Made by a program: the position numbers and the translations under genes. Under the pieces are notes generated by a model. That model worked only from the letters and a program-made list of their open reading frames with translations. It searched no databases and had not been told where the DNA came from. Shown one piece after another: positions 20,557-48,233 of a stretch of 64,000 nucleotides of DNA. The DNA is taken from the NCBI GenBank assembly GCA_963749085.1, contig CAVVLG010000002.1, positions 155,093-219,092 of the forward strand. The letters are read 5' to 3'. The first letter of the stretch is position 1. Each line of letters opens with the position of its first letter. The stretch comes from Candidatus Adlerbacteria bacterium. Lineage in GTDB: Bacteria; Patescibacteriota; Minisyncoccia; Phycocordibacterales; SBAW01.

Positions 20557-21586
20557 GGAAGACGTCGCGGTGTGTCTCCAAGTTCTCCAAAATGACGCCC
20601 GTGCCGCGCACGACCGCAGTCAGAGGATCGTCCGCCACAAAGACCGGCACTTTAAGCCACTGGGAGAGCAGCGAATCGAGGCCTTTGAGTAGTGCTCCCC
20701 CGCCCGTGAGAACTATGCCCGAGCGCATGATATCGGAGAGAATTTCCGGAGGTGTTGTTTCAAGCACTTCGCGCACGGACTCAATCAGGGTATCGACCGA
20801 CTGCGAAATGGCTTCGCGAACATCCTGATCCGTCAAAATGACTTCGCGCGGCAGCCCCGTGATAAGATCTCGACCGCGCACCACTGCCTCCGTGTGAGAG
20901 CCGAATTCCATGACCGAGCCTATGGCCATCTTCACGCCTTCGGCACTCTTCTCCCCTATCAATATCTTAAATTCGGAGCGCACGTGGGCGATGATGTCTT
21001 GGTTTAGTTTGTCTCCCGCTATGCGCAGATTTTTGGAGCGGATGATGCCGCCCAAGGAGAGCACCGCGATGTCGGAGGTTCCTCCGCCGATATCGACTAC
21101 CATGGAGCCTACGGCTTCGCGTATGGGAAGCCTGATGCCGAGGGCTGCGAGTATCGGCTCCTCGACGATGTGCACCTCTCGGGCACCCGCGTTTTGCGCT
21201 GCGTCTTTGACCGCACGAATTTCAACGTTGGTGATGCCGGAGGGTACGCCGATGACCGCGCGGGGACCCAGCATTTTTTTCGATACCCCCTGCGAGCGAG
21301 TGATGAGGTAGGCGAGCATCTCCTCCGTCGCTTCGAAATCGGACACGACGCCGTCAATCAGCGGTCGAACGGCGCTCAAATGTCCGGGGGTGCGTCCGAG
21401 CATGGCTTTGGCTGAAGCACCCACCGCAACCACCTGGCCGGTTTTTTGATTTATGGCGACAACCGAGGGCTCGGAGATGACGATACCCTTGCCGCGCAAA
21501 TACACCAGCGTATTAGCGGTTCCGAGGTCAATGCCGACATCGTTTGAGACCAGCGGCCATATCCGATTTTTCACTCGCTCAAGCAT
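20531..21586 (-). CDS. mreB: rod shape-determining protein MreB
   Basis: Actin-fold motifs GIDLGTANTLVY, DIGGGTSDIAV and ALLKGLD. Start set at MLERVKN. The 419-aa ORF extension overlaps proS. Confidence 0.9.
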   Translation of the reverse strand: MLERVKNRIWPLVSNDVGIDLGTANTLVYLRGKGIVISEPSVVAINQKTGQVVAVGASAKAMLGRTPGHLSAVRPLIDGVVSDFEATEEMLAYLITRSQGVSKKMLGPRAVIGVPSGITNVEIRAVKDAAQNAGAREVHIVEEPILAALGIRLPIREAVGSMVVDIGGGTSDIAVLSLGGIIRSKNLRIAGDKLNQDIIAHVRSEFKILIGEKSAEGVKMAIGSVMEFGSHTEAVVRGRDLITGLPREVILTDQDVREAISQSVDTLIESVREVLETTPPEILSDIMRSGIVLTGGGALLKGLDSLLSQWLKVPVFVADDPLTAVVRGTGVILENLETHRDVFLEHDDDIS

Positions 21587-27397: not shown

Positions 27398-28411
27398 TTA
27401 TCTCTTCGCAATGATGGCCTTCTTGTAGGTGTCGAGGTGATCAAGCGCGATGCCGGTGCCGCGCGCAACCGCGGTCAGGGGATCGTCGGCCACCTGCGCT
27501 TTGACCCCGGTACGCCGGAGCACCAACTCCGGGAAGTTTCGTAGAAGCGATGTGCCTCCTGTCATGGTAATGCCGCGATCAATGATGTCGGAGGCGAGTT
27601 CCGGCGGGGTCTCCTGAAGCACGTCGCGAATAGCTTTGACTATCTCGCGTAGTTCCTTGCCTATCGCTTTGACGATGTCGTTGGTCTTTATCTCAACGGT
27701 CCTCGGGAGCCCCGTGATGAAATCACGCCCGCGCACCTGGCACACTAATTCATCTTCAACCGGCACGGCGGAGCCTATGGCGATTTTTACGTCCTCGGCG
27801 GTCTTATCCCCTATGCCGAGATTGAAGGTCTTCTTTATATAGTCCGCTATGGCCCTGTCTATTCTATCTCCCGCGCATTTAATTGACGTTGAGGCCACGA
27901 TGCCTCCCAGGGAAATAACCGCGACATCGCAGGTGCCGCCGCCAAGGTCCACAACCATGTTACCGTGTGCTTCCTGAATGGGAATGCCGGCGCCAATGGC
28001 GGCCAAGACCGACTCTTTGACAACGTAGGCGCTCTTAGCCCCGGCGCGTATCGCCGCCTCGACAACCGCGCGCCGCTCGGTTGAGGTGACTCCGGTCGGC
28101 ACACTTATCATCACTTCAGGTTTGAAGAATTGAAAGCGGCCGAGCGTTTTAGAAATAAAATAGCGCAGCATCGCCTGGGTGACGCGGTAGTCAGCAATGA
28201 CGCCGTCACGCAGCGGACGATAGGCGACTATTTCTCCCGGCGTACGCCCTATCATCGCTTTGGCTTCAGCTCCTATTGCCAAAATCCGTTTGTCCACTTC
28301 CGAAATAGCGACGACCGATGGCTCGTTTAACACCACTCCCTTTCCCGGCACAAACACGAGTGTATTAGCGGTGCCTAAATCAATGCCGAGTTTTGGCGTA
28401 AAAAAAGCCAT
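27398..28411 (-). CDS. mreB: MreB-like actin homolog (second paralog)
   Basis: GIDLGTANTLVF, DLGGGTCDVAV and the same actin-fold motifs as the first MreB. About 55% identical to the mreBCD-linked copy, by eye. Confidence 0.8.
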   Translation of the reverse strand: MAFFTPKLGIDLGTANTLVFVPGKGVVLNEPSVVAISEVDKRILAIGAEAKAMIGRTPGEIVAYRPLRDGVIADYRVTQAMLRYFISKTLGRFQFFKPEVMISVPTGVTSTERRAVVEAAIRAGAKSAYVVKESVLAAIGAGIPIQEAHGNMVVDLGGGTCDVAVISLGGIVASTSIKCAGDRIDRAIADYIKKTFNLGIGDKTAEDVKIAIGSAVPVEDELVCQVRGRDFITGLPRTVEIKTNDIVKAIGKELREIVKAIRDVLQETPPELASDIIDRGITMTGGTSLLRNFPELVLRRTGVKAQVADDPLTAVARGTGIALDHLDTYKKAIIAKR

Positions 28412-32320: not shown

Positions 32321-32392
32321 TCCGCGGTAGCTCAATGGTAGAGCAGCTCCCTGTTAAGGAGTTGGTTGTAGGTTCGAGTCCTACCCGCGGAG
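32321..32392 (+). tRNA. tRNA-Asn (anticodon GUU)
   Basis: TCCGCGG/CCGCGGA acceptor, GCTC-AATGGTA-GAGC D-arm, anticodon loop CTGTTAA, GTAGG-TTCGAGT-CCTAC T-arm and discriminator G. CCA is not encoded. Confidence 0.85.
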
Positions 32393-32497
32393 CTTAATTT
32401 GACAGGTATGAGTGCTCGTGTTAAATAATAGAAAGACTTCGAGTTATTTAAACCCGTTTCTCTAATTCTAAACCACGCGCCAAAGGACGCTTGAGTA

Positions 32498-32848
32498 ATG
32501 CCGATGATTAAGGTTTGGTGTCTTCCCGATGATCTCACCGAAGGAGAGCTTCGCGAAATTCATCAGGACATCGTGAAAGCCGCCATGAGCGTCGAGGTGC
32601 TCGGCTTTAAGGGTGAGGAAGATATGCTCACTCTTTTCCCAAAGGACATGATGACCTACGGTCTTGGGACCGAGATCGCCATCGAAGTAACCGAGCTCTG
32701 GGACAAGCCGGAACGGACTGATGAAGTTCGTGCGGAGCTCGCGAAACAACTCGGCGAGGCGGTCAGCAAGCACTTCCCCACGGCCAAAGTGATGTGCTAC
32801 ATCACTCCCTTCAGTCAACGACAAGGTTTCTGGATGAAGGGTTGGTAG
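32498..32848 (+). CDS. hypothetical protein (116 aa), possibly tautomerase/MIF-like
   Basis: Begins MPMIKVW (Pro after the initiator Met, as in tautomerase-superfamily proteins). Length similar to MIF. Weak call. Confidence 0.3.
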   Translation: MPMIKVWCLPDDLTEGELREIHQDIVKAAMSVEVLGFKGEEDMLTLFPKDMMTYGLGTEIAIEVTELWDKPERTDEVRAELAKQLGEAVSKHFPTAKVMCYITPFSQRQGFWMKGW

Positions 32849-32912
32849 AACTAGGCCACGCATTCTCGAAAGAGGGTGCGTGGCTCTTGCTTTTATATGG
32901 AGGCCAATCGAG

Positions 32913-33590
32913 TTACCACTCCCGTTTCTTTCCAAACTTCCAAAAATTCCCAGAGGCGCTGTTGCTCGTTGCGAGCCGATAAATATCCTCGGCTGCCTGC
33001 TCGGGTTCTCGATCTGGTTTATCAGTTTCCGTCGCAACGGCCATTCCCATATCCGTTTTCACCCAACCTGGATCAAGTGACGAAACGATAATCCCTTTCT
33101 CTTCTAGATGGAGCGCAAGGACCCGGGTGTACATATTTAGGGCCGCCTTACTCATGCGATACCCAGCGGAGGTCTGATCGTCTATGAGGAAAGAGAAGGA
33201 GCCATATACCGAATCAATATTGATGATGTGTGCTCCGCGATCCATCAAAGGTAGAAGATGGTTAGTGAGATCGATGGTTCCAAACAGATTTACCTCGAAT
33301 GTCTGTCGTATTTTATTCAGGTCAATCGTCGAATCGTGATTGTCCTTGATGATCCCCGCATTGTTCACGAGAACGTCCACGCTCGGACATACCCGCTTAA
33401 TATCCTGGGCAGCTCTCTCGATGTCCTTGGGAGATGAAAGATCGAGTTTTATTGAGATCAGCTGCTCGGATGTCAGCGGAATGGCGGTGTTGTTATACGT
33501 CCCGACTACCTTCCATCCGTTTGCAAGGAAGACCTTGGCGGTGGCCAATCCTATTCCCCGGCTAGCGCCCGTAATGACCGCAGTTTTCAT
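32913..33590 (-). CDS. short-chain dehydrogenase/reductase
   Basis: TGASRGIG Rossmann motif, NNAG, and the catalytic YRMSK (YxxxK). Confidence 0.85.
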   Translation of the reverse strand: MKTAVITGASRGIGLATAKVFLANGWKVVGTYNNTAIPLTSEQLISIKLDLSSPKDIERAAQDIKRVCPSVDVLVNNAGIIKDNHDSTIDLNKIRQTFEVNLFGTIDLTNHLLPLMDRGAHIINIDSVYGSFSFLIDDQTSAGYRMSKAALNMYTRVLALHLEEKGIIVSSLDPGWVKTDMGMAVATETDKPDREPEQAAEDIYRLATSNSASGNFWKFGKKREW

Positions 33591-33674
33591 GTCTCAAGCA
33601 TAGCAGACCAGGTTCTAGACTCCCCTATCCAACTCAGCTGCCCCAACTCCCTTTCAATCTGCGCCCAGTTTAGA

Positions 33675-33719
33675 GTTCTGAACTTGACCGCGTGGCGGAG
33701 CCATGTTCTGAACTTGTCC
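33675..33719 (+). repeat. pair of 15-bp direct repeats GTTCTGAACTTG(A/T)CC spaced 30 bp, with GGAGCC between
   Basis: 33675..33689 and 33705..33719. The same bipartite module recurs at 34775..34819. Confidence 0.75.
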
Positions 33720-33836
33720 AACCAGTTTTTGAATGCAAGAATTTCATAGACTTTTTCAAAAAATGTGATAATGTTTTGGCGGATGTTCGCATCCGTCTAT
33801 CAACCCAAATTGGCCCAGCGGGTCAGGAGGTGAGAC

Positions 33837-34667
33837 GTGAATACACAGCTCCAAGCAATGGTTGACGTTGCGGTAGACGATTCCCGAGGTTTAGGGGCGA
33901 TTGGAACTTTGCCGAAAGCCCAAGCAGTCCTGCGCAGATTAATAGGAGTCTTGAGGCCGGAGGAATTGCTCGAGCGTATCCTTCACTCTCCGCTTCAAGC
34001 TGCTTTAATCAAAGCCCTTCCCAATCTTGTCGGCACTACCTCGGTTCAGTTGCGCCCCTATGTGGACGCAATGCTTAACTGGAACGACGAGAATGCTGAG
34101 TGGGAACTCGACTCACACCACGCACTTGCAGCGGCATACTGGCAAGCAGTAGTGCTTGAGCGCATCACGCTCAGGGATTACCGGCGAGCTTGGGATGAAA
34201 TCCGACGGGCATATCGAGGGTTTCAATCTCAAGAAGACTCAAGCTTTGGCGACCCCAACCGAACTCCTACCGATGAGGTGCTCTGCGGTGGCCCGTCTGA
34301 AATGGCGGCGACTTCCGAAGTCGTTGAAAATCTCGTCATCGAACTTTACTCGAAGATGTTGGTGGAAAGGCTGGTACCGGCGGTAAGCAGTACGCCGGTG
34401 CAGGTCGATGACTACGAGAAGCACACCGTCTACCGTGTTCAGAAGCGGGAAGGCAAGCAAACCAAACCCGCCAATTACACAAGCCACAAGCCAGTGCCTG
34501 GCATCGGGTTTGCGAAAGCAGTGGGCAACACAATCAGCGGCTATGATCGGATAGGCCAGATGGTCCTCGCTCTAGCTCGATACGCTTCCTCTGGCCGCAA
34601 CAAGAAGCGGCTAAGGCAACAGAAGCGGGCGTTCGAGAATGCCGTGGCTTCATATCGGCGCCACTGA
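33837..34667 (+). CDS. hypothetical protein (276 aa)
   Basis: GTG start with AGGAGG 6 nt upstream. Followed by a hairpin terminator at 34689..34723. No family recognised. Confidence 0.4.
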   Translation: MNTQLQAMVDVAVDDSRGLGAIGTLPKAQAVLRRLIGVLRPEELLERILHSPLQAALIKALPNLVGTTSVQLRPYVDAMLNWNDENAEWELDSHHALAAAYWQAVVLERITLRDYRRAWDEIRRAYRGFQSQEDSSFGDPNRTPTDEVLCGGPSEMAATSEVVENLVIELYSKMLVERLVPAVSSTPVQVDDYEKHTVYRVQKREGKQTKPANYTSHKPVPGIGFAKAVGNTISGYDRIGQMVLALARYASSGRNKKRLRQQKRAFENAVASYRRH

Positions 34668-34688
34668 GTGCAGATCCCATAATCTTCG

Positions 34689-34723
34689 ACGGCACGACCC
34701 ATCAGGGCCGTGCCGTTTCTTTT
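34689..34723 (+). terminator. rho-independent terminator
   Basis: CGGCACG-loop-CGTGCCG followed by TTTCTTTTT. Confidence 0.65.
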
Positions 34724-34774
34724 TACATAAACCCCAACACCGCAACCTCTTTCGCGATAATCCTCCAATCCAAA

Positions 34775-34819
34775 GTTCTGAACACGTCCAAGGAGGGGAG
34801 CCCTGTTCTGAACTTGTCC
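34775..34819 (+). repeat. second bipartite GTTCTGAAC(ACG/TTG)TCC - GGGAGCC - GTTCTGAACTTGTCC module
   Basis: 34775..34789 and 34805..34819, with the same 30-bp offset as at 33675. Confidence 0.75.
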
Positions 34820-34851
34820 AAGCGGCCCCCTCCAGGGAGGGGTAATGTATA

Positions 34852-34887
34852 ATTTTAAAAAGCGACCATCGAAAAAAACGATGGTCG
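34852..34887 (-). terminator. rho-independent terminator of the minus-strand ORF
   Basis: GCGACCATCG-A7-CGATGGTCGC with a T-run on the minus strand. Confidence 0.6.
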
Positions 34888-34922
34888 CTACTACTGGGGA
34901 AACAAAGCAAGAATCCAGACTG

Positions 34923-35318
34923 TCAATTGCGCCAGCCGTCGCCGGCAAAGATGCCGTCATTGTGGGGCCGGTTGACGTTCTGTGAGACATCACCGCGAGT
35001 TGGGAGCGGACTGGGCTCGGCTTTTTTTGTGCCACGTTTCTTGCGCAGTGCCTTTTCTTCTGCGAGAAGCTTTGAAAGCGCTTCTTCGACACACTGTTCA
35101 TCCTCCATGTCGAGTTGTTTTGCGCGGACCCTGATGAGTTGCCGCCAACTTTTGTGGTTTCGCGGGATTATGCTGGCACACACCAGTGCCAAGTGGGTGT
35201 AGAAGATAAGTCGCCGTTGCCCTAGGTCCGCAGAGAGCAATATGAATTTCTGCCCGAGTTCCCGCATCGCGGCGATGTGATAGGGCCGCGGTTTCTTGGA
35301 TTTTGTGGCCTGTGCCAT
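34923..35318 (-). CDS. hypothetical protein (131 aa)
   Basis: Basic and coiled-coil rich ORF. Two adjacent hairpins lie in its 5' region (35335..35385). Confidence 0.4.
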   Translation of the reverse strand: MAQATKSKKPRPYHIAAMRELGQKFILLSADLGQRRLIFYTHLALVCASIIPRNHKSWRQLIRVRAKQLDMEDEQCVEEALSKLLAEEKALRKKRGTKKAEPSPLPTRGDVSQNVNRPHNDGIFAGDGWRN

Positions 35319-35482
35319 GCCTGCCTCGTTAGTAAGAGCTACTCGTTGTTAAAACGAGGCTCCACGTTATGGAGCCGCAAGAGTATATCATAAAAATCGA
35401 TTATCTCAATACTGTCACGAAAAATGAGGTATTCTTAATTATAAATAAGTGCATTTCCTCCTCAATTTGCCTCCAATTCAGC

Positions 35483-35497
35483 GTTCTGAACTTGTCC
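35483..35497 (+). repeat. GTTCTGAACTTGTCC repeat (single copy) followed by GGAGCC and TTGACT
   Basis: Same 15-mer as at 33705 and 34805. Lies about 95 bp upstream of the 35590 ORF. Confidence 0.7.
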
Positions 35498-35589
35498 TTG
35501 TAGCGGAGCCAGCTATTGACTCAATTTATTTTAAATGTTAAAGAGGTAACAGAAGTACTGCTTCTAAATTCAATATATGGAGGTGCGCA

Positions 35590-36828
35590 ATGGAAGACAT
35601 TGCATCACAACGTCTGCAAGCGGCGCTTAACTATTGGAAATCGGCCTGCTGGCTTCTGGAAGCAAAACTTAGACTTCAGTCTCCGGAATATAAGCTTGTC
35701 GCCCAATCGGATATTATCCCTCCCCAGCTCTATAGGTGGAGGAACTTCGATCACACTGTGTTCGACAACACGGTACAGGAATTGAAGCCAAGCGAATGGG
35801 GCACACCGGACTCGGCAAAAGGCGATCTGAAGGATTTCGATGAGGTCTGTGAGTTTCCTTTCGAATTCTTTCAGTGGAGTCGTAAGTCGCGCCGGGTTTT
35901 CCATCTTCCGGAAGGTCTTACACGGACGCTCATCATGGCGACCTACCCCGAGGTCTTGTGGGAAGATGTCCTATTTCCCTTCGAAAGTTTCGTAATAACT
36001 CTTGACAGGAATATTGGAGAGAGCGATTACGACGGAGAAATGGGCTCTGTTGCCAATAAAGCGGATGCGCTCCTCGTATCAAAAAGTCCTGGAGGTTCAA
36101 AAAGCCCTGGGGGTATCACAATACAGATATTGAACGAAAACACGCCACTTCATAATGTCGTGACGGAAGAGGCACAACACCGCTTTGAGGTCATGCTGAG
36201 GAGAGGTAAAGATAAAGCAACATCTTTTCTCGAGAAGATCGAGAATAGATGGCGCGATAGCTACTCTTTTCCTCCCCTGTGGCTACGCTTCTTGCTGTGT
36301 CGTAATGGGACTTCTCCCCAATCGCGAGTAGGGTTGGAACCAGAGGACCTTCTTGAATTAATCAATCCTTCCGAACGAGAACTTTTCAAAGGAAAAGAAA
36401 AAGACTCGTACGAATGGGACGTTCTTCTGGGAACCTGCAGCGATGCGGCGAAAATTGTAGTCGGATGGTGTCTCTACCTACAGACCCTTTCCACTACGGA
36501 TGTGGCATGGAAGGCACAAGAACGTGTCAAACGGATCCGGGGAACCCGCGGTGCGACTGGCATCATTACGCAGGTGGACCATATCTGCACGGTGCTTGGT
36601 AAGGCTCGTCTAGATCCCTCAACCTACGGGGTACGAGAAAGCCCAAGACAATCTTCTGGCTTCTTCAAGCGACCGCACTGGCGCAGGGCTCATAAGAAGC
36701 GTCCCAACCGGACACCACTTAGTACGCCAAAGACAATCAAGGTTCCACCTCGGTTAATCCGGAAGGATCTGGTTCCCTTTTTCGGTATCATTGGCGGAAC
36801 AAAGACGGAAGTGCTCCCTGAGGAATAG
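35590..36828 (+). CDS. hypothetical protein (412 aa)
   Basis: GGAGGTG 5 nt upstream of the ATG. Hairpin terminator at 36855..36885. No family recognised. Confidence 0.45.
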   Translation: MEDIASQRLQAALNYWKSACWLLEAKLRLQSPEYKLVAQSDIIPPQLYRWRNFDHTVFDNTVQELKPSEWGTPDSAKGDLKDFDEVCEFPFEFFQWSRKSRRVFHLPEGLTRTLIMATYPEVLWEDVLFPFESFVITLDRNIGESDYDGEMGSVANKADALLVSKSPGGSKSPGGITIQILNENTPLHNVVTEEAQHRFEVMLRRGKDKATSFLEKIENRWRDSYSFPPLWLRFLLCRNGTSPQSRVGLEPEDLLELINPSERELFKGKEKDSYEWDVLLGTCSDAAKIVVGWCLYLQTLSTTDVAWKAQERVKRIRGTRGATGIITQVDHICTVLGKARLDPSTYGVRESPRQSSGFFKRPHWRRAHKKRPNRTPLSTPKTIKVPPRLIRKDLVPFFGIIGGTKTEVLPEE

Positions 36829-37006
36829 ATAGACGGAGTAACGAGGTCCCTATAAGCGACTTCCTACGGGGAGTCGCTTTTTTCTTTCCTTACTTCCCTG
36901 CCAACTATGTTTCCAAAATAAGAAATGGCGGACACAAAATTTCGAACTGCTCCTCTATTTCCTTCCAGTTCAGCGTTCTATAGGCGGACAATAGGGGGAG
37001 CTTGAC

Positions 37007-37035
37007 TTGACAGATATTCGAATACGTGATACATA
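37007..37035 (+). promoter_or_regulatory. sigma70-like promoter (TTGACA-17-TACATA) with a conserved downstream leader
   Basis: Near-identical promoter and about 45-nt leader recur at 38496..38570 upstream of the transposase remnant. Confidence 0.5.
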
Positions 37036-37099
37036 AGTAAAAGAATTCGGACTTTGTAATCCGTCTTCCCTTCCATTCTAACGCACACAGGAGGTGGCC

Positions 37100-37699
37100 A
37101 TGCCACCATATGCTAATGCATATCTGAAACTCAATCCGCGAGATACCCTCGATTGGATAAAGTTGCAAAGAATAATGAGTTCGGACATTCCGGACCACCT
37201 ACGCCAGGAGATAGTAAATCACTGTCATGGTTTATTAAATCCTCGCGACACCCTTGATTACATAAAGTTAAACAAACTGACCCAATATCAAAGGGGTGGA
37301 AGAGGCAACGGGGGTAACGCTGCGGCATCCCCGGTAATAGATCGACAGATAGTGTCTCTACAAGGGCAAATCACAAGCTTGCACCGGAAGCTCCGCGAGA
37401 AGGATGCGAGAATAGTTGCTCTTGAAAAAGACGTCCGCTGGGCCGCAGGGGAAATAGTACGGCATATACGTGAAAAGGTGGAACTGCAATCACATCCTCA
37501 CCATAATCATTCTTCCCCACTGAAACCGGAAGAGTTTCTAAGGGATATAAAGCGGCGCGGATTATCACAGGCGGAGCATGTGATGAACGGTAAGAGTATC
37601 CCGGCTGGTCAAAGTCGGAAACATGCCGTGCATATGCGGGCCGTGCACCTGATCCACGAAGCGATAAACGAGCTAGTCCGAGAGGCTCGTAAGCTCTGA
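37100..37699 (+). CDS. hypothetical protein (200 aa) with internal NPRDTLD(W/Y)IKL repeat
   Basis: AGGAGG 5 nt upstream of ATG 37100. Two copies of LNPRDTLDxIKL. Terminator 37692..37726. Confidence 0.45.
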   Translation: MPPYANAYLKLNPRDTLDWIKLQRIMSSDIPDHLRQEIVNHCHGLLNPRDTLDYIKLNKLTQYQRGGRGNGGNAAASPVIDRQIVSLQGQITSLHRKLREKDARIVALEKDVRWAAGEIVRHIREKVELQSHPHHNHSSPLKPEEFLRDIKRRGLSQAEHVMNGKSIPAGQSRKHAVHMRAVHLIHEAINELVREARKL

Positions 37700-37924
37700 C
37701 CACTGTTGGTCGGAGCTTTTTTCTTTCCCGATATTGACTCTGTAAAAAATATGCTGTATTCTGCCTTTGGATTGTTGGGAGGAATACATGTTCCAAGAAC
37801 AATTCGGTCAAGTGGACGCTAAACACAGGAGTGGAAAATGAGCGATAGTCTAACGGATTTCTTTCTTTTCTCTGCTCCCCACTAATTCATTGACCATAGG
37901 AAAACATATCTATATATTTCTAGG

Positions 37925-38065
37925 TATGGGAACTCGACAATGAGGCCCTCAGGCGTCGCGTCGACTGGGTTCGCGACCCTCTTGGACAGTCTGTTGGCGG
38001 GGTAAACGCCCACCAAGACAAGACGCCTCCAAACATCAGGCCGTCTCATGTGGACGGCCTTTTTC
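37925..38065 (+). ncRNA. candidate small RNA / micro-ORF transcript (about 140 nt)
   Basis: TTGACC(37890)-17-TATATT(37913) promoter, an internally structured region (GTCGCG...CGCGAC) and an intrinsic terminator GGCCGTC-N7-GACGGCC+TTTTT at 38038..38068. Contains only 5- and 21-codon ORFs. Confidence 0.3.
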
Positions 38066-38172
38066 TTTCACCTACTTCCCCACCACAAACTATAGTGAGT
38101 CACACGGTCGGGAACAATCGGTGGTAGAATGAGGCGAAGGCCGTCCATTCACCGGATCAATACTTATTACTA

Positions 38173-38346: not shown

Positions 38347-38730
38347 TTTTCTTATCCTCAATCTCGGGTGGGTAAACAATCAATAGACTAAGTCTGCTCT
38401 GTGGTCGTAGGTCTGGGACGTAAATATATATCTTTCCTTCCTCTCCAAAATGGTTCTAACGTTGTGCACGGTGCGGAGCCATCCATCGACAGGTATTTGA
38501 CAGGTATTTTTAATACGTGATATACAAGCAAAAGACTCCGGACTTTGTAATTCGTTTCCTCCAACATCCTATCGCGCCTGAAAGGACGCTGGGCCAATGA
38601 CGATACCACAACAACTTATTGAATTCTGGACGTGGGTGCGTGTCCAATTCTTTGAGTTAATGGAAAAAATATCAGGCTGATTTCGTGATACCATGGCTTT
38701 ACTGCAAGCTAATTTGCATACAAACTAACT

Positions 38731-39509
38731 ATGCGTACTAAAAAAGAGTTCGAAAGTGCCCCGCGTGCGGTTCGCTGAAGACGAAAAGGAACGGGGCTCC
38801 GAGAGGAGTCCAGTGGTTTCGTTGCCGCGCGTGCGGTACATCATTTCAATCAGGACGGCGTCCGAAAGCGAAACAATCTGAGCTCTACGAGCAGTACGTC
38901 TTCAAACGCCAGACCCTGGCAGAACTCGCCATGCGTGAAGAGAAGAGCGTGCGCTGGGTGCAGACACAGCTCGATGCGGCGACATCGGATTTCCCTCCGC
39001 TTCCTCCGCGGGCAACCGTCATGCTCGCCGATACCACTTTTCTGGGTCGCGCCTACGGCGTGTGCGTGTTTCGCTCGCCCACCCTCAAACGTAACCTCTG
39101 CTGGACTGAAGTGGAGCAGGAGACCGCAGCGGTCTACACCCAAAGCCTCATAGGACTCCGGGACAGAGGATGGACTGTCACTGCCGCGGTCATCGACGGG
39201 AGGCGAGGCGTGGCAAGGGTGTTCGAGCGACAGGGTATCCCGGTGCAGTACTGCCAGTTCCACCAGATGCAGACGGTGACGAAGTACCTTACCCGCAGGC
39301 CGGAGAGCGAAGCAGCGCAAGAGCTACGCGCACTTTCTCTCATGCTGCACAGGACCACTGAACAAACATTTACCGCAGCCCTTACTGCGTGGCACGCACG
39401 GCACGAAGTCTTCCTCAAGGAGCGGTCGCCGGCTCCGCACACCAAGCGCGGCTGGGAGTACACGCCAGTCCTTATGTTGCGGAGGCAAAAGCAGATTTCA
39501 AGATCATAA
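38731..39509 (+). pseudogene. zinc-ribbon + DDE transposase (IS1/IS1595-like), disrupted by a frameshift near the 5' end
   Basis: ATG 38731 gives MRTKKEFES then stops. The +2 frame continues CPACGSLKTKRNG...FRCRACGTSF (C2C2 zinc ribbon), an HTH-like segment and a DDE-like core (DTTF, IDGRRG, QYCQFHQ) to 39509. A single missing T at about 38756 would restore one 259-aa ORF. Confidence 0.5.
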
Positions 39510-39693
39510 CCATTCTGCATCCAAGACCGCCTTGAGGAAGCTTGAGGCGGTATTTTTCTTTTCCTACTTTCCTCTCCTGCAGGTTCTAACGTCGTTCAGC
39601 AAGAGCAAATTAGTTTTCCCTTCATCTTGCAAACAGATACAAATGATAGAACGTTAGGGGTCCAGGCTTTTGTCATCACAGGGGAGGAAGGTA

Positions 39694-39870: not shown

Positions 39871-39955
39871 CTCGGCCACCCTTACCTAAACGACCGCCAA
39901 ACTTTTGGCGGTTTTTTCTTTCCCCATTCCCCTCTTATATCGCAGAACTAATCTG

Positions 39956-46448: not shown

Positions 46449-48233
46449 ATGAATGAAAAAACTGCGGGCCGTGTGGGCGTGTATGGGTTTTTGGCGTTTC
46501 TTTTGGTTTTGTTCATTCCTCTCTCCTTTGCCCTGGCACAAAGCGCTCCGTCGCTCTCCATTACCTCCCTCACGCCGGGAGGCACCGTCAACGCGGGAAC
46601 ACAGGTGTCCTTCGCAGTCGTGGCAACCGGATTCACGAACCCTACTTATTCCATAAGCGACTCCTACAGTGGCACCTCCGTCTCAAGCTCCGACCTTAAC
46701 TCCTCCGGGGTCTTCACCTGGACGCCCGCGCAAGGCGACATCGGCACGCACAACCTCACTATTACCGCCATTGATTCCTCGGGCGACAACGCGAGCATCA
46801 CTCAGCAAATCATCGTCAACAACACGCCGTCGCTGTCGGTCTCCAGTCTCTCTCCGGGCACCTCGGTGAGCGTGGGTCAGGATATTACGTTTGACGCCTC
46901 TGCTTCGTATTTCACCGGCACCCCCGCGTATTCCGTGAGCGATTCCTTCTCGGACTCCTCGATGACGACGGGCGCCATCAATTCCTCCTCCGGCACATTT
47001 TCCTGGACGCCTGAATCGCAGGATGTCGGTACGCACACGATAACGATTTCTGCGACCGATTCCAACGGGGACAGCGTCAACACGACCGAGACCATCACGG
47101 TCAACCAAAGCGCCTCGCTTTTCATCACCTCTCTGTCTCCCGGATCAAGCGTTGCCTATGGCAATCCGGTGGCGTTCACCGTGACGGCAACCGGATTCAA
47201 TAGTCCCACCTTTACTATTGGAGATTCGGACTCCGAGACGAGTGTCAATAACGGCGACATAAACTCCTCCGGGTATTTCAGCTGGACGCCTTCGAGCTCC
47301 GACGTCGGCACCCACACACTCAGCATCTTCGCGACCGACTCCTCAGGCCACAGCGCCAACGTTTCGCAGACGATAACGGTGACGAGCGCCGCTCTTACGA
47401 TTGAGTCCATCTCACCGGGCTACGTCGACACAGTCGGGGAACCTCTGACCTTCACGGTCTCGGCTCCCGGATTCTCAAGCTCCACCACCTACTCAGTGAG
47501 TGATTCCTTCGGGGGGTCGACACCCACACAAACCAGCATCACCAGTGCGGACATAAACGCTGCCGGATACTTTAGCTGGACGCCCCTTGCAACCGACGCG
47601 GGCGTGCACGACATCACGATAACCGGCGCGGACACCTCCGGGCACAGCGGAAACGCGAGCATCAATATCATTGTTGATCCCGCGACTACCACCACCTCGG
47701 TCACCCCGACAACCACAACCATCTCCGCTCTGACTACCACCACTTCAACCACCGAATTCACCGAATACCTCTCGCTGGGTTCGACCGGCTCGCAAGTCAC
47801 GGCGCTCCAGCAGATCCTCTATACCGACGGGTATCTCAGCGTTCAACCGACGGGATACTTCGGCACTCTCACCGCCGCGGCCATCAACGAGTTCCAGGCG
47901 GCACACGGGATTTCGCAAGTCGGCGTTGTGGGACCGCTTACACGGGCGGCGCTCAATGCGCTCGGTTCCTCCTCAACGTCGAGCGCCTCAAACACTTCAA
48001 CTACCACCACTTCAACCACCGAATTCACCGAATACCTCTCGCTGGGTTCGACCGGCTCGCAAGTCACGGCGCTCCAGCAGATCCTCTATACCGACGGGTA
48101 TCTCAGCGTTCAACCGACGGGATACTTCGGCACTCTCACCGCCGCGGCCATCAACGAGTTCCAGGCGGCACACGGGATTTCGCAAGTCGGCGTTGTGGGA
48201 CCGCTTACACGGGCGGCGCTCAATGCGCTATAA
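46449..48233 (+). CDS. secreted cell-wall-associated protein: 5 Ig-like (putative Ig / He_PIG-type) repeats + 2 peptidoglycan-binding domains
   Basis: Signal peptide. Five ~95-aa repeats (LSxTSLxPG...F(T/S)WTP...D(I/V)GTH(N/T)(L/I)TI(T/S)A(I/T)DS(S/N)G). Two identical PG_binding_1-like modules (LQQILYTDGYL...GYFGTLTAAAINEFQAAHGI). Confidence 0.6.
   Translation: MNEKTAGRVGVYGFLAFLLVLFIPLSFALAQSAPSLSITSLTPGGTVNAGTQVSFAVVATGFTNPTYSISDSYSGTSVSSSDLNSSGVFTWTPAQGDIGTHNLTITAIDSSGDNASITQQIIVNNTPSLSVSSLSPGTSVSVGQDITFDASASYFTGTPAYSVSDSFSDSSMTTGAINSSSGTFSWTPESQDVGTHTITISATDSNGDSVNTTETITVNQSASLFITSLSPGSSVAYGNPVAFTVTATGFNSPTFTIGDSDSETSVNNGDINSSGYFSWTPSSSDVGTHTLSIFATDSSGHSANVSQTITVTSAALTIESISPGYVDTVGEPLTFTVSAPGFSSSTTYSVSDSFGGSTPTQTSITSADINAAGYFSWTPLATDAGVHDITITGADTSGHSGNASINIIVDPATTTTSVTPTTTTISALTTTTSTTEFTEYLSLGSTGSQVTALQQILYTDGYLSVQPTGYFGTLTAAAINEFQAAHGISQVGVVGPLTRAALNALGSSSTSSASNTSTTTTSTTEFTEYLSLGSTGSQVTALQQILYTDGYLSVQPTGYFGTLTAAAINEFQAAHGISQVGVVGPLTRAALNAL
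47733..48229 (+). repeat. perfect 230-bp direct tandem duplication (period 267 bp) inside the 46449 gene
   Basis: 47733..47962 is nucleotide-identical to 48000..48229. Encodes the duplicated PG-binding module. Confidence 0.85.

Follow-up and report, generated by a model that had tools for sequence, protein, structure and literature searches.

In the 64,000-nt (64-kb) stretch of Candidatus Adlerbacteria DNA analyzed here (the window), a 15-base sequence, GTTCTGAACNNGNCC, is repeated downstream of a tRNA-Asn gene. The repeats are probably attachment-site junctions of small integrative units, stacked in tandem at the 3' end of the tRNA-Asn gene; the 15-mer, together with the GGAGCC that follows it, is the conserved end of a module of about 108 nt, which closes each unit. 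Read in this way, the repeats of the window are the scars of an orphan cassette array, and not regulatory sites.

Five exact copies of GTTCTGAACNNGNCC are present, at 33675, 33705, 34775, 34805 and 35483, all on the + strand, while no match is found in 100 dinucleotide-preserving shuffles of the window. As reported in a preliminary description of this DNA, the copies at 33675-33719 and 34775-34819 are paired, at an offset of exactly 30 nt and with GGAGCC in between; the copy at 35483 is single, and N7-GGAGCC is found 3' of it as well. Exact 9-mers GTTCTGAAC occur in the window only within the five 15-mers. The palindrome described in the repeat is real as far as the GTTC-T-GAAC dyad is concerned; its longer version is not exact, since the 22-mer CCAGTTCAGCGTTCTGAACTTG carries 1-2 mismatches at both places where it had been quoted (the window reads CCAGTTTAGAGTTCTGAACTTG at 33665 and CCAATTCAGCGTTCTGAACTTG at 35473), and the 7-bp inverted repeat AGTTCAG/CTGAACT is imperfect at both. 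The copies are non-random and intergenic: neither the chance frequency nor the copies in coding regions, which the preliminary description had named as arguments against a specific site, are found.

By ungapped repeat finding and alignment, decayed members of the family are recognized to the right, at about 36950-37002, 38425-38482 and 39560-39610. Six co-oriented junctions, J1 to J6, are thus present, with spacings of 1100, 708, 1492, 1478 and 1130 nt. J1 and J3 lie between divergent gene starts and J2 between convergent gene ends; there is, therefore, no fixed relation to promoters. The second pair of copies had been placed between two convergent terminators: plausible hairpins are indeed seen by eye at 34686-34722 (+) and at 34859-34891 (for the - strand gene), but both failed a consensus terminator scan.

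The terminal module and its distribution

The module was delimited by aligning the four copies present in one related locus (L040; related loci are indicated by L and a number): it is about 108 nt long, and its edges are sharp: (T)AGTTCTGAAGT marks the left one and GGGAGC(C)A the right one. Its last 28 nt read GTTCTGAAC-NN-GTCCA-N6-GGAGCC. This 28-nt core was searched as the pattern GTTCTGAACNNGNCCNNNNNNNGGAGCC, with 18 specified bases, in one genome per species (596 Gb): 112 loci were found in the species-representative genomes, where an arithmetic estimate predicts about 17 by chance. Most of them carry Saccharibacteria, Paceibacteria/Parcubacteria, Kaiserbacteria, Uhrbacteria, Gracilibacteria or Patescibacteria labels, and a few are from Atribacterota; GC-rich matches outside the Candidate Phyla Radiation (CPR) look like the chance fraction. 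A scan of viral contigs with the same core gave 0 matches. A profile built from 84 copies of the module (nhmmer) recovers the three well-preserved copies of the window, J1 to J3.

In 26 of 102 loci at least two co-oriented modules are found, 0.6-3 kb apart, and in about 16 of the 54 loci tested a tRNA-Asn gene of the same strand is found 0.5-1.2 kb upstream. The cargo between modules consists of varied accessory genes (methyltransferases, Fic, GDSL lipases, peptidase S51, DUF3800, a DpnII-type restriction-modification system); no recurring recombinase is found among the 148 open reading frames (ORFs) nearest to the modules. At many junctions, inverted GTTCTGAAC and GTTCAGAAC boxes are located on either side of a hairpin.

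Arrays of single-gene cassettes separated by conserved elements of about 100 nt, with inverted boxes flanking a hairpin, are reminiscent of integron-type attC sites, the substrates of a tyrosine integron integrase. By inspection, however, the boxes TCTGAAC / GTTCAGA do not fit RYYYAAC / GTTRRRY, the cassettes have their own promoters and terminators, and the recombinase physically linked to the modules is of the serine type (see below). A search for tyrosine recombinases in the loci, by phmmer with an approximate XerD query and by a box II motif screen, found none, which is a weak negative. An integron-type origin of the sites is judged extremely improbable. Template and variable repeats of diversity-generating retroelements (DGRs), clustered regularly interspaced short palindromic repeats (CRISPR) and miniature inverted-repeat transposable elements (MITEs) were also considered and discarded: the repeats enclose unrelated cargo, their copies lie outside genes and no A-specific variation is seen.

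In contigs from Atribacterota and relatives (L002, L003, L023, L054, L056, L062, L067, L098, L102, L109) the core takes the form GTTCTGAACGCGTCCAATAGGGGGAGCC and is accompanied by a terminator hairpin; the upstream sequence is different, and no CPR-type module is present. These sites may belong to a related system in another phylum.

Large serine recombinases and the geometry of the proposed attachment sites

When all ORFs were clustered across loci, genes for large serine recombinases (LSRs), with Resolvase, Recombinase and Zn_ribbon_recom domains, were found on the - strand of the module, reading into it. They abut the module or a tRNA gene in L010, L012, L055, L115 and L117; the reading frame enters the module in L012 and L010, and tRNA-Asn or tRNA-Ala in L115 and L055. 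In L012 the LSR C-terminus is ...SSLGLPLVDKFRTLNW...LQNS*, so that the peptide encoded by the module is its in-frame continuation; in L117 as well this peptide continues the LSR ORF, over 162 residues. LSR homologues in the protein collection are collinear until ...SSLGL, the antisense of GGAGCC; past this point they carry either the module peptide (P0033) or peptides antisense to the tRNA 3' half (RELDSNQRPIA, RGQGSNLGHPR). Many of these homologues are fragments, and full-length LSR genes are found at the same locus in relatives. In L055 (4972-6642), at a distance of 3 kb from an array of cassettes at tRNA-Asn, a full-length LSR of 554 aa ends within a tRNA-Ala gene of the opposite strand, so that the family apparently targets more than one tRNA. 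The LSRs are distantly related to those of solved structure (SPbeta integrase, E=6e-14; A118, E=4e-7).

The module might instead be a gene of its own, copied along with the cassette: a small RNA, or a - strand microprotein of 28-35 codons, (V/L)DxFRTxNW..IK..L.FS.I..LFP...LQN*, in which the 15-mer encodes DKFRT. Substitutions do follow a 3-base period, 45% of the single-base codon differences being synonymous, versus 16-19% in four other frames; two peptide subfamilies show the same hydrophobic pattern, and gene callers occasionally predict the peptide (30 small hypothetical proteins). A free-standing microprotein was favoured at first, because of this codon periodicity, and was abandoned once the peptide turned out to prolong the LSR, in frame, at its C-terminus in L012 and L117: with the LSR frame continuing into the module, the coding signature is accounted for and no separate gene is needed. 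In addition, the start codon is not conserved (CTG in about 20% of copies, AAG in J3), no Shine-Dalgarno sequence is present, a hairpin lies directly upstream, and the antisense frame with the same wobble positions scores equally. As for a small RNA, only tRNAs reach the gathering score of Rfam 15 in the window, and matches at chance level were all that E-value scans returned for 33500-35650 and for the L040 array. On the whole, an independent gene is distinctly unlikely. In the window, the 30-nt duplication of J1 is in frame on the - strand, generating a 44-codon ORF (33587-33721, MDKFRTWLRHAVKFRTLNW...), the stop codon of which overlaps the ATG of a dehydrogenase gene (ATGA); a similar ORF of 32 codons is found at J2. 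The reverse ORF of J1 also gave a weak match to DGR Avd (E=0.099), which was dismissed as spurious.

The junctions can be compared between related loci. In L115 (GCA_028865255.1), where chromosomal synteny is that of the window, CTAGTGACGAAAC comes after the tRNA-Asn end ...CCTCC-GGAGCC; next come a hairpin and then the 3' end of an LSR gene, which reads toward the tRNA. The sequence CTAGTGACGAAAC, indicated as P', also follows the GGAGCC of the module in L012 and L117, and is identical whether its left partner is a tRNA or a module. Since left partners differ, the right partner is the same and GGAGCC is common to both, the exchange point falls in the GGAGCC core, and GGAGCC(A) is all that the module and the tRNA-Asn 3' end have in common. 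L117 shows, in order, tRNA-Asn, a 109-aa cassette with its module, an LSR remnant followed by a helix-turn-helix (HTH) protein, a DpnII-type restriction-modification system, two genes and a module, and then the next unit: a module is the far end of this LSR element, and must therefore be the element-side left arm. At the far end of L115 a variant arm, TTCGACCTTTCACTTTGGAGCC, is found, related to the GTTCGAACATCCTCCCACCTTTGGAGCC of L040 and L044. One cassette, located beside a true tRNA-Asn in L009, is found beside a tRNA-like remnant in L044, with homology extending from GGAGCC to the next GGGAGCC; L095 and L008 have the tRNA flank in common and different cassettes. Fragments of tRNA 3' ends are present inside the arrays of L095, L049 and L012. 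To the right of GGAGCC, a mirror TGGAC is found four bases away in about 10% of the junctions (GTCCC/GGGAC in L033), and a dyad is seen in L012.

At some array borders, tRNA-acceptor-like remnants replace the tRNA or the module (L040, 2525-2560; L044; L120, 4120-4160; L115, about 240-262); TTCCGAACATCCTCCAACGTTCGGAGCC and GCTCCGCGGG...CCCGCGGAGCC are of this kind. Such remnants may represent deleted tRNA genes or a second type of P arm.

The preliminary description had mentioned, as an alternative to protein-binding sites, the core and arm sites of a recombinase. This is probably right in essence, as the related loci tie both the module and GGAGCC to an LSR and to the tRNA-Asn 3' end. Site geometry is also consistent with it. 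The zinc-ribbon domain (ZD) of the A118/LI integrase reads a 9-bp motif, located at half-site positions 16-24 in attP and 5 bp inward, at 11-19, in attB (Rutherford et al. 2013, PMC3783163). With the centre set at G|A of GGAGCC, the GTTCTGAAC of the module occupies positions 24-16 and is followed by NN, by GTCCA at 13-9, by N6 and by GG at 2-1. The T-loop 9-mer of tRNA-Asn, GTTCGAnnC, which lies 8 nt before GGAGC, falls at 19-11 in 24 of the 24 genes of related loci. The module 9-mer is 5 bp farther from GGAGCC than the tRNA one, an exact offset; the G|A centre was chosen to fit the published model, but the offset is independent of this choice. Judging from sequence, the palindromic 9-mer would sit where the ZD motif is expected in an attP-type half-site.

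The proposed mechanism is as follows. The 28 nt of the module would be the attP-type left half-site (P arm) of an LSR, in which GTTCTGAAC would be the 9-bp ZD motif, at half-site 16-24, and GTCCA the recombinase-domain motif; strand exchange would occur in GGAGCC(A), the short core shared with the acceptor end of tRNA-Asn. Upon integration of a circular element, its LSR end would adjoin the tRNA (attL), leaving the module at the far end (attR). Repeated integrations would build the array, and loss of the LSR gene by internal deletion would leave one-gene mini-cassettes, perhaps still movable in trans.

Several points weigh against this scheme. No LSR gene or remnant is found in the 64-kb window by tblastn or phmmer, for which reason the array is considered an orphan, and nothing shows that it is active today. 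The sequences to the right of GGAGCC are heterogeneous, the next base, A as in the CCA end, alone being conserved (77 of 106 junctions); most mini-cassettes have no obvious second half-site, which is the main weakness of a picture based on two half-sites. In one pair of related cassettes (L040/L095) homology starts about 30 nt past GGAGCC, at a conserved box after the hairpin. G|A is most likely the crossover dinucleotide, as deduced from the geometry and not from observed exchange. Canonical serine integrases recombine attP with attB only, so that a tandem array would need recombination with hybrid sites or a permissive enzyme. Finally, the 9-mer of the second 15-mer of the paired copies lies at 7'-15', which fits neither attP nor attB geometry. 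Covariation of the P core with the box after the hairpin was looked for by eye, with inconsistent results.

Some of these points would be expected if the array were now kept and shuffled by homologous recombination only, with modules and tRNA fragments acting, after natural transformation, as portable homology arms and the recombinase signature being a fossil. The missing LSR, the right flanks mostly devoid of a recognizable half-site, the L040/L095 breakpoint at the box rather than at GGAGCC and the fragmentary state of many LSR homologues in the database all agree with this explanation. On the other side, the 28-nt core is conserved at the nucleotide level over very distant lineages, which points to recent mobility or ongoing selection on the site; other breakpoints fall precisely at GGAGCC, and relatives do carry full-length LSR genes at the same locus. 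Maintenance by homologous recombination only is considered unlikely.

The preliminary description had favoured operator or iteron-type sites for a dimeric DNA-binding protein. On this view, the genes next to the sites would be regulated by a transcription factor or replication initiator, bound as a dimer to the palindromic 9-mers. The dyad is, as said, real; in J3, J4 and J5 a TTGAC -35-like box is found within about 10 nt after GGAGCC, and 11 of 106 junctions elsewhere have promoter-type right flanks. Yet the sites mark unit boundaries and keep one orientation whatever the direction of the genes, J2 being flanked by two convergent gene ends; the motif closes a 108-nt module, which is conserved across phyla beside unrelated cargo; the last 6-7 nt of the motif are common to the tRNA-Asn 3' end, and the LSR reading frame crosses it. 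No co-occurring HTH, Rep or ParB gene is found. Regulatory sites of this kind are therefore considered very improbable.

Organization of the array in the window

The features of the array are listed below, with position, strand and, where relevant, the supporting search. Both the tRNA-Asn gene and the repeats are on the same strand.

32321..32393, +: tRNA-Asn(GTT), by ARAGORN and Rfam; anchor of the array and putative attB left arm
32372-32380, +: T-loop 9-mer of tRNA-Asn, GTTCGAGTC, by sequence; GG|AGC at 32389-32393
32394..33612, unstranded: unit 0, with a TTGACA promoter immediately 3' of the tRNA
32498-32848, +: gene of unit 0, 116 aa
32854-32885: bidirectional terminator of unit 0
32913-33590, -: short-chain dehydrogenase gene of unit 0
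33613..33704, +: J1 module, left part degenerate (nhmmer 33642-33703, E=7e-10; alignment)
33675-33704, +: putative P-arm core of J1, GTTCTGAAC TT GACCG CGTGGC GGAGCC AT
33705..33721, +: second 15-mer of site 1, GTTCTGAACTTGTCC(AA), first bases (left end) of unit 1
33837..34667, +: cargo of unit 1, 276-aa uncharacterized protein without Pfam, NCBIfam or PHROG match
34720..34804, +: J2 module (nhmmer 34720-34802, E=4e-12)
34775-34804, +: putative P-arm core of J2, GTTCTGAAC AC GTCCA AGGAGG GGAGCC CT
34805..34821, +: second 15-mer of site 2, GTTCTGAACTTGTCC(AA), first bases of unit 2
34923..35318, -: cargo of unit 2, 131-aa uncharacterized protein
35437..35512, +: J3 module (nhmmer 35437-35511, E=1e-12; alignment)
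35483-35512, +: core of J3, GTTCTGAAC TT GTCCT TGTAGC GGAGCC AG
35590..36828, +: cargo of unit 3, 412-aa uncharacterized protein
36950..37002, +: J4, degenerate, CTCCTCTATTTCCTTCCAGTTCAGC GTTCTATAG GC GGACA ATAGGG GGAGCT (repeat families D11, D10; alignment)
38425..38482, +: J5, degenerate, GTTCTAACG TT GTGCA CGGTGC GGAGCC AT (repeat families D4, D10; alignment)
38931..39509, +: truncated transposase of the IS256 family (Zn-binding variant) in unit 5 (NCBIfam NF048019, E=8e-39, profile positions 61-228 of 304)
39560..39610, +: J6, strongly decayed, GTTCTAACG TC GTTCA GCAAGA GCAAAT

The P-arm core is retained in J1-J3, while J4-J6 are increasingly degraded with distance from tRNA-Asn: preservation of the nearest three junctions and decay of the farthest three form the pattern predicted by entry of new units at the tRNA, the older ones drifting away. 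At J4, a tblastn search with the tail peptide still matches 36941-37015. Unit 3 opens, 3' of J3, with the promoter-type left end AGCTATTGACT, which is also found in L055 and L112. After J4 a TTGACA promoter and a conserved leader (37021-37084) are present, and after J5 a promoter and leader (38512-38575). The two 64-nt leaders, AATACGTGATA.A.AAG.AAAAGA.T.CGGACTTTGTAAT.CG..., are 78% identical, whereas the genes behind them differ; the leader is the conserved left end, or the 5' untranslated region, of units 4 and 5. As these two units share promoter and leader despite unlike cargo, a unit consists of a conserved left end, a variable cargo and a conserved right module.

The double 15-mer at 30-nt offset, described as a bipartite site, is found only in the window among the loci of the species scan, L020 having a 23-nt variant. 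In metagenomes, a strict 39-nt bipartite pattern gave 0 matches, and a relaxed 23-nt pattern led to two informative contigs. One of them, L119, features a terminator of the window type followed by TTTTTCTTTTGCCTACTTCCCC and, within the array, ...GGCTCTGAACTTGCGTACGCTGGGGAGCC-AT-GTTCTGAACTTGTCC, where the 15-mer comes after a module; in the other, L120, the 15-mer is found two bases past GGAGCC after a tRNA-acceptor-like remnant (GCTCCGCGGG...CCCGCGGAGCC), and again after a decayed module. The second 15-mer can therefore be assigned to the unit lying right of the crossover: it starts two bases past GGAGCC, makes up the opening 15-17 nt of that next unit and recurs in this lineage, with five cases. 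Its interpretation as part of an attB-type full site, with the two 9-mers as ZD motifs, was dropped, since the model calls for a gap of 20 nt and the actual one is 21 nt; the resemblance was left as an unexplained coincidence.

Between 33.6 and 40.3 kb the window contains short genes without recognizable domains (276, 131, 412 and 201 aa) and the truncated IS256-type transposase, and the region is flanked by ordinary genes. Apart from the transposase fragment, the cargo proteins have no domain in Pfam, NCBIfam or PHROGs; for the 276-aa protein a single distant homologue was found. Synteny upstream of the array includes MreB, EPSP synthase, deformylase, formyltransferase, a hibernation factor and tRNA-Asn. 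Exact-protein look-ups of the flanking genes retrieved only the source contig, and no strain variants.

The IS256-type stretch spans 38757-39509, with CxxC...CxxC just upstream of the transposase in a different frame, and is probably a decayed insertion sequence within the array. Downstream of each of five terminator hairpins (36854-36900, 37691-37730, 38038-38085, 39526-39575, 39892-39935) stands TTTTTCTTTCC(n)TACTTCCC, a signature that also precedes the bipartite junction of L119. Such signatures outnumber the recognizable modules, and may mark further, fully decayed unit boundaries. Elsewhere in the window, a 594-aa ORF (46449-48233) contains a perfect 230-nt duplication (47733-47962 and 48000-48229, 267 nt apart), along with older repeats of about 280-294 nt (families D1, D6, D8), and has the look of a repeat-domain protein that underwent an internal duplication very recently. 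The regions 20593-21537 and 27448-28389, 6855 nt apart, are paralogous, with blocks 74-84% identical (D3, D14, D16); the latter falls inside an MreB-like gene (27398-28411), and the window seems to carry two MreB/Mbl paralogues. One further ORF matches DUF4096, an N-terminal domain of IS4/IS5-type transposases (E=8e-28).

A possible gene-capture platform and its relation to known systems

A broader reading, proposed here only tentatively, is that the loci form an integron-like gene-capture platform of Patescibacteria, based on an LSR and on the tRNA-Asn 3' end, with a recombinase C-terminal tail that changes with integration state. Autonomous elements and one-gene mini-cassettes would share the terminal module as attP arm. 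In the circular state, or behind another unit, the LSR would carry the module-encoded tail of about 35 residues (...LPLVDEFRTLNW..IK..L.FS.I..LFP...LQN); when integrated beside the tRNA, it would carry a short tRNA-antisense tail. The enzyme would be altered by this swap in a built-in, state-dependent manner, which could bias directionality. The P-O-15-mer junction of the window lineage might be a variant attP, with a T-loop-like 9-mer in both arms. Literature searches found no such arrangement in Patescibacteria; their coverage is incomplete, and they are no proof of novelty.

If this holds, an easily recognized 28-nt signature would mark a variable gene-capture locus across much of the CPR, the members of which have tiny genomes and poorly understood routes of gene gain. 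It would also define an LSR family having a tRNA gene as natural target, while serine integrases (S-Ints) have been described as not known to target tRNA genes (PMC7192596). Serine integrases are genome-engineering tools, and here the att half-sites could be read directly from genomes; a natural landing pad beside tRNA-Asn could aid the genetics of Saccharibacteria. An LSR frame running across its own attachment site suggests, moreover, state-dependent control of the enzyme.

Several known systems share part of these features. As for the phage serine integrases (A118/LI, Bxb1, phiC31, SPbeta), the enzyme combines Resolvase, Recombinase and Zn-ribbon domains, partner sites share only a short identity, and the distal 9-bp motif of the host site lies 5 bp nearer the centre than that of the element site; here, in contrast, the left half-site alone is conserved and the right one is heterogeneous. 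No recombination directionality factor was identified.

Accretion of integrative and conjugative elements (ICEs) and cis-mobilizable elements (CIMEs), and tandem islands at tRNA genes, involve tyrosine integrases and units of many kb. Tandem arrays are discussed in PMC7192596. As with CIMEs, integrase-less, att-bounded units pile up beside a tRNA gene, and tRNA 3' fragments are left in the array (L095, L049, L012); the enzyme here, in contrast, is a serine recombinase, and unit size is that of integron cassettes.

Archaeal integrases of the SSV1 type have their gene split upon integration. The present LSRs resemble them in having attP inside the integrase frame, so that integration alters the gene product; here, however, only the last 35 codons or so are exchanged, a module tail for a tRNA-antisense tail, the catalytic body remaining intact, and the enzyme is of the serine and not of the tyrosine class. 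Integron arrays, and clusters of attC sites lacking integron-integrases (CALINs), are likewise orphan, co-oriented series of single-gene, mostly uncharacterized units, each ending in a recombination element of about 100 nt; they differ in recombinase class, in the attC box consensus, absent here, and in that the present cassettes have their own promoters and are anchored to a tRNA instead of attI.

The closest known analogue is found in the composite islands of the staphylococcal cassette chromosome (SCC/SCCmec). Their LSRs insert at one chromosomal site, the 3' end of a conserved gene (rlmH), and successive insertions generate tandem arrays; SCC units are bounded by short direct repeats containing the integration core, and many of them (pseudo-SCC) are recombinase-less and depend on enzymes acting in trans. 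Tandem units at one site, each bounded by an integration core and some without recombinase (the window, L040, L117), are found here too. Unlike SCC, the target is tRNA-Asn (positions 71/72 to CCA) and not rlmH, the hosts are Patescibacteria and a unit may measure no more than about 0.7 kb and hold just one gene; the units carry, in addition, a conserved terminal module of about 108 nt, and the recombinase frame runs across the attachment site.

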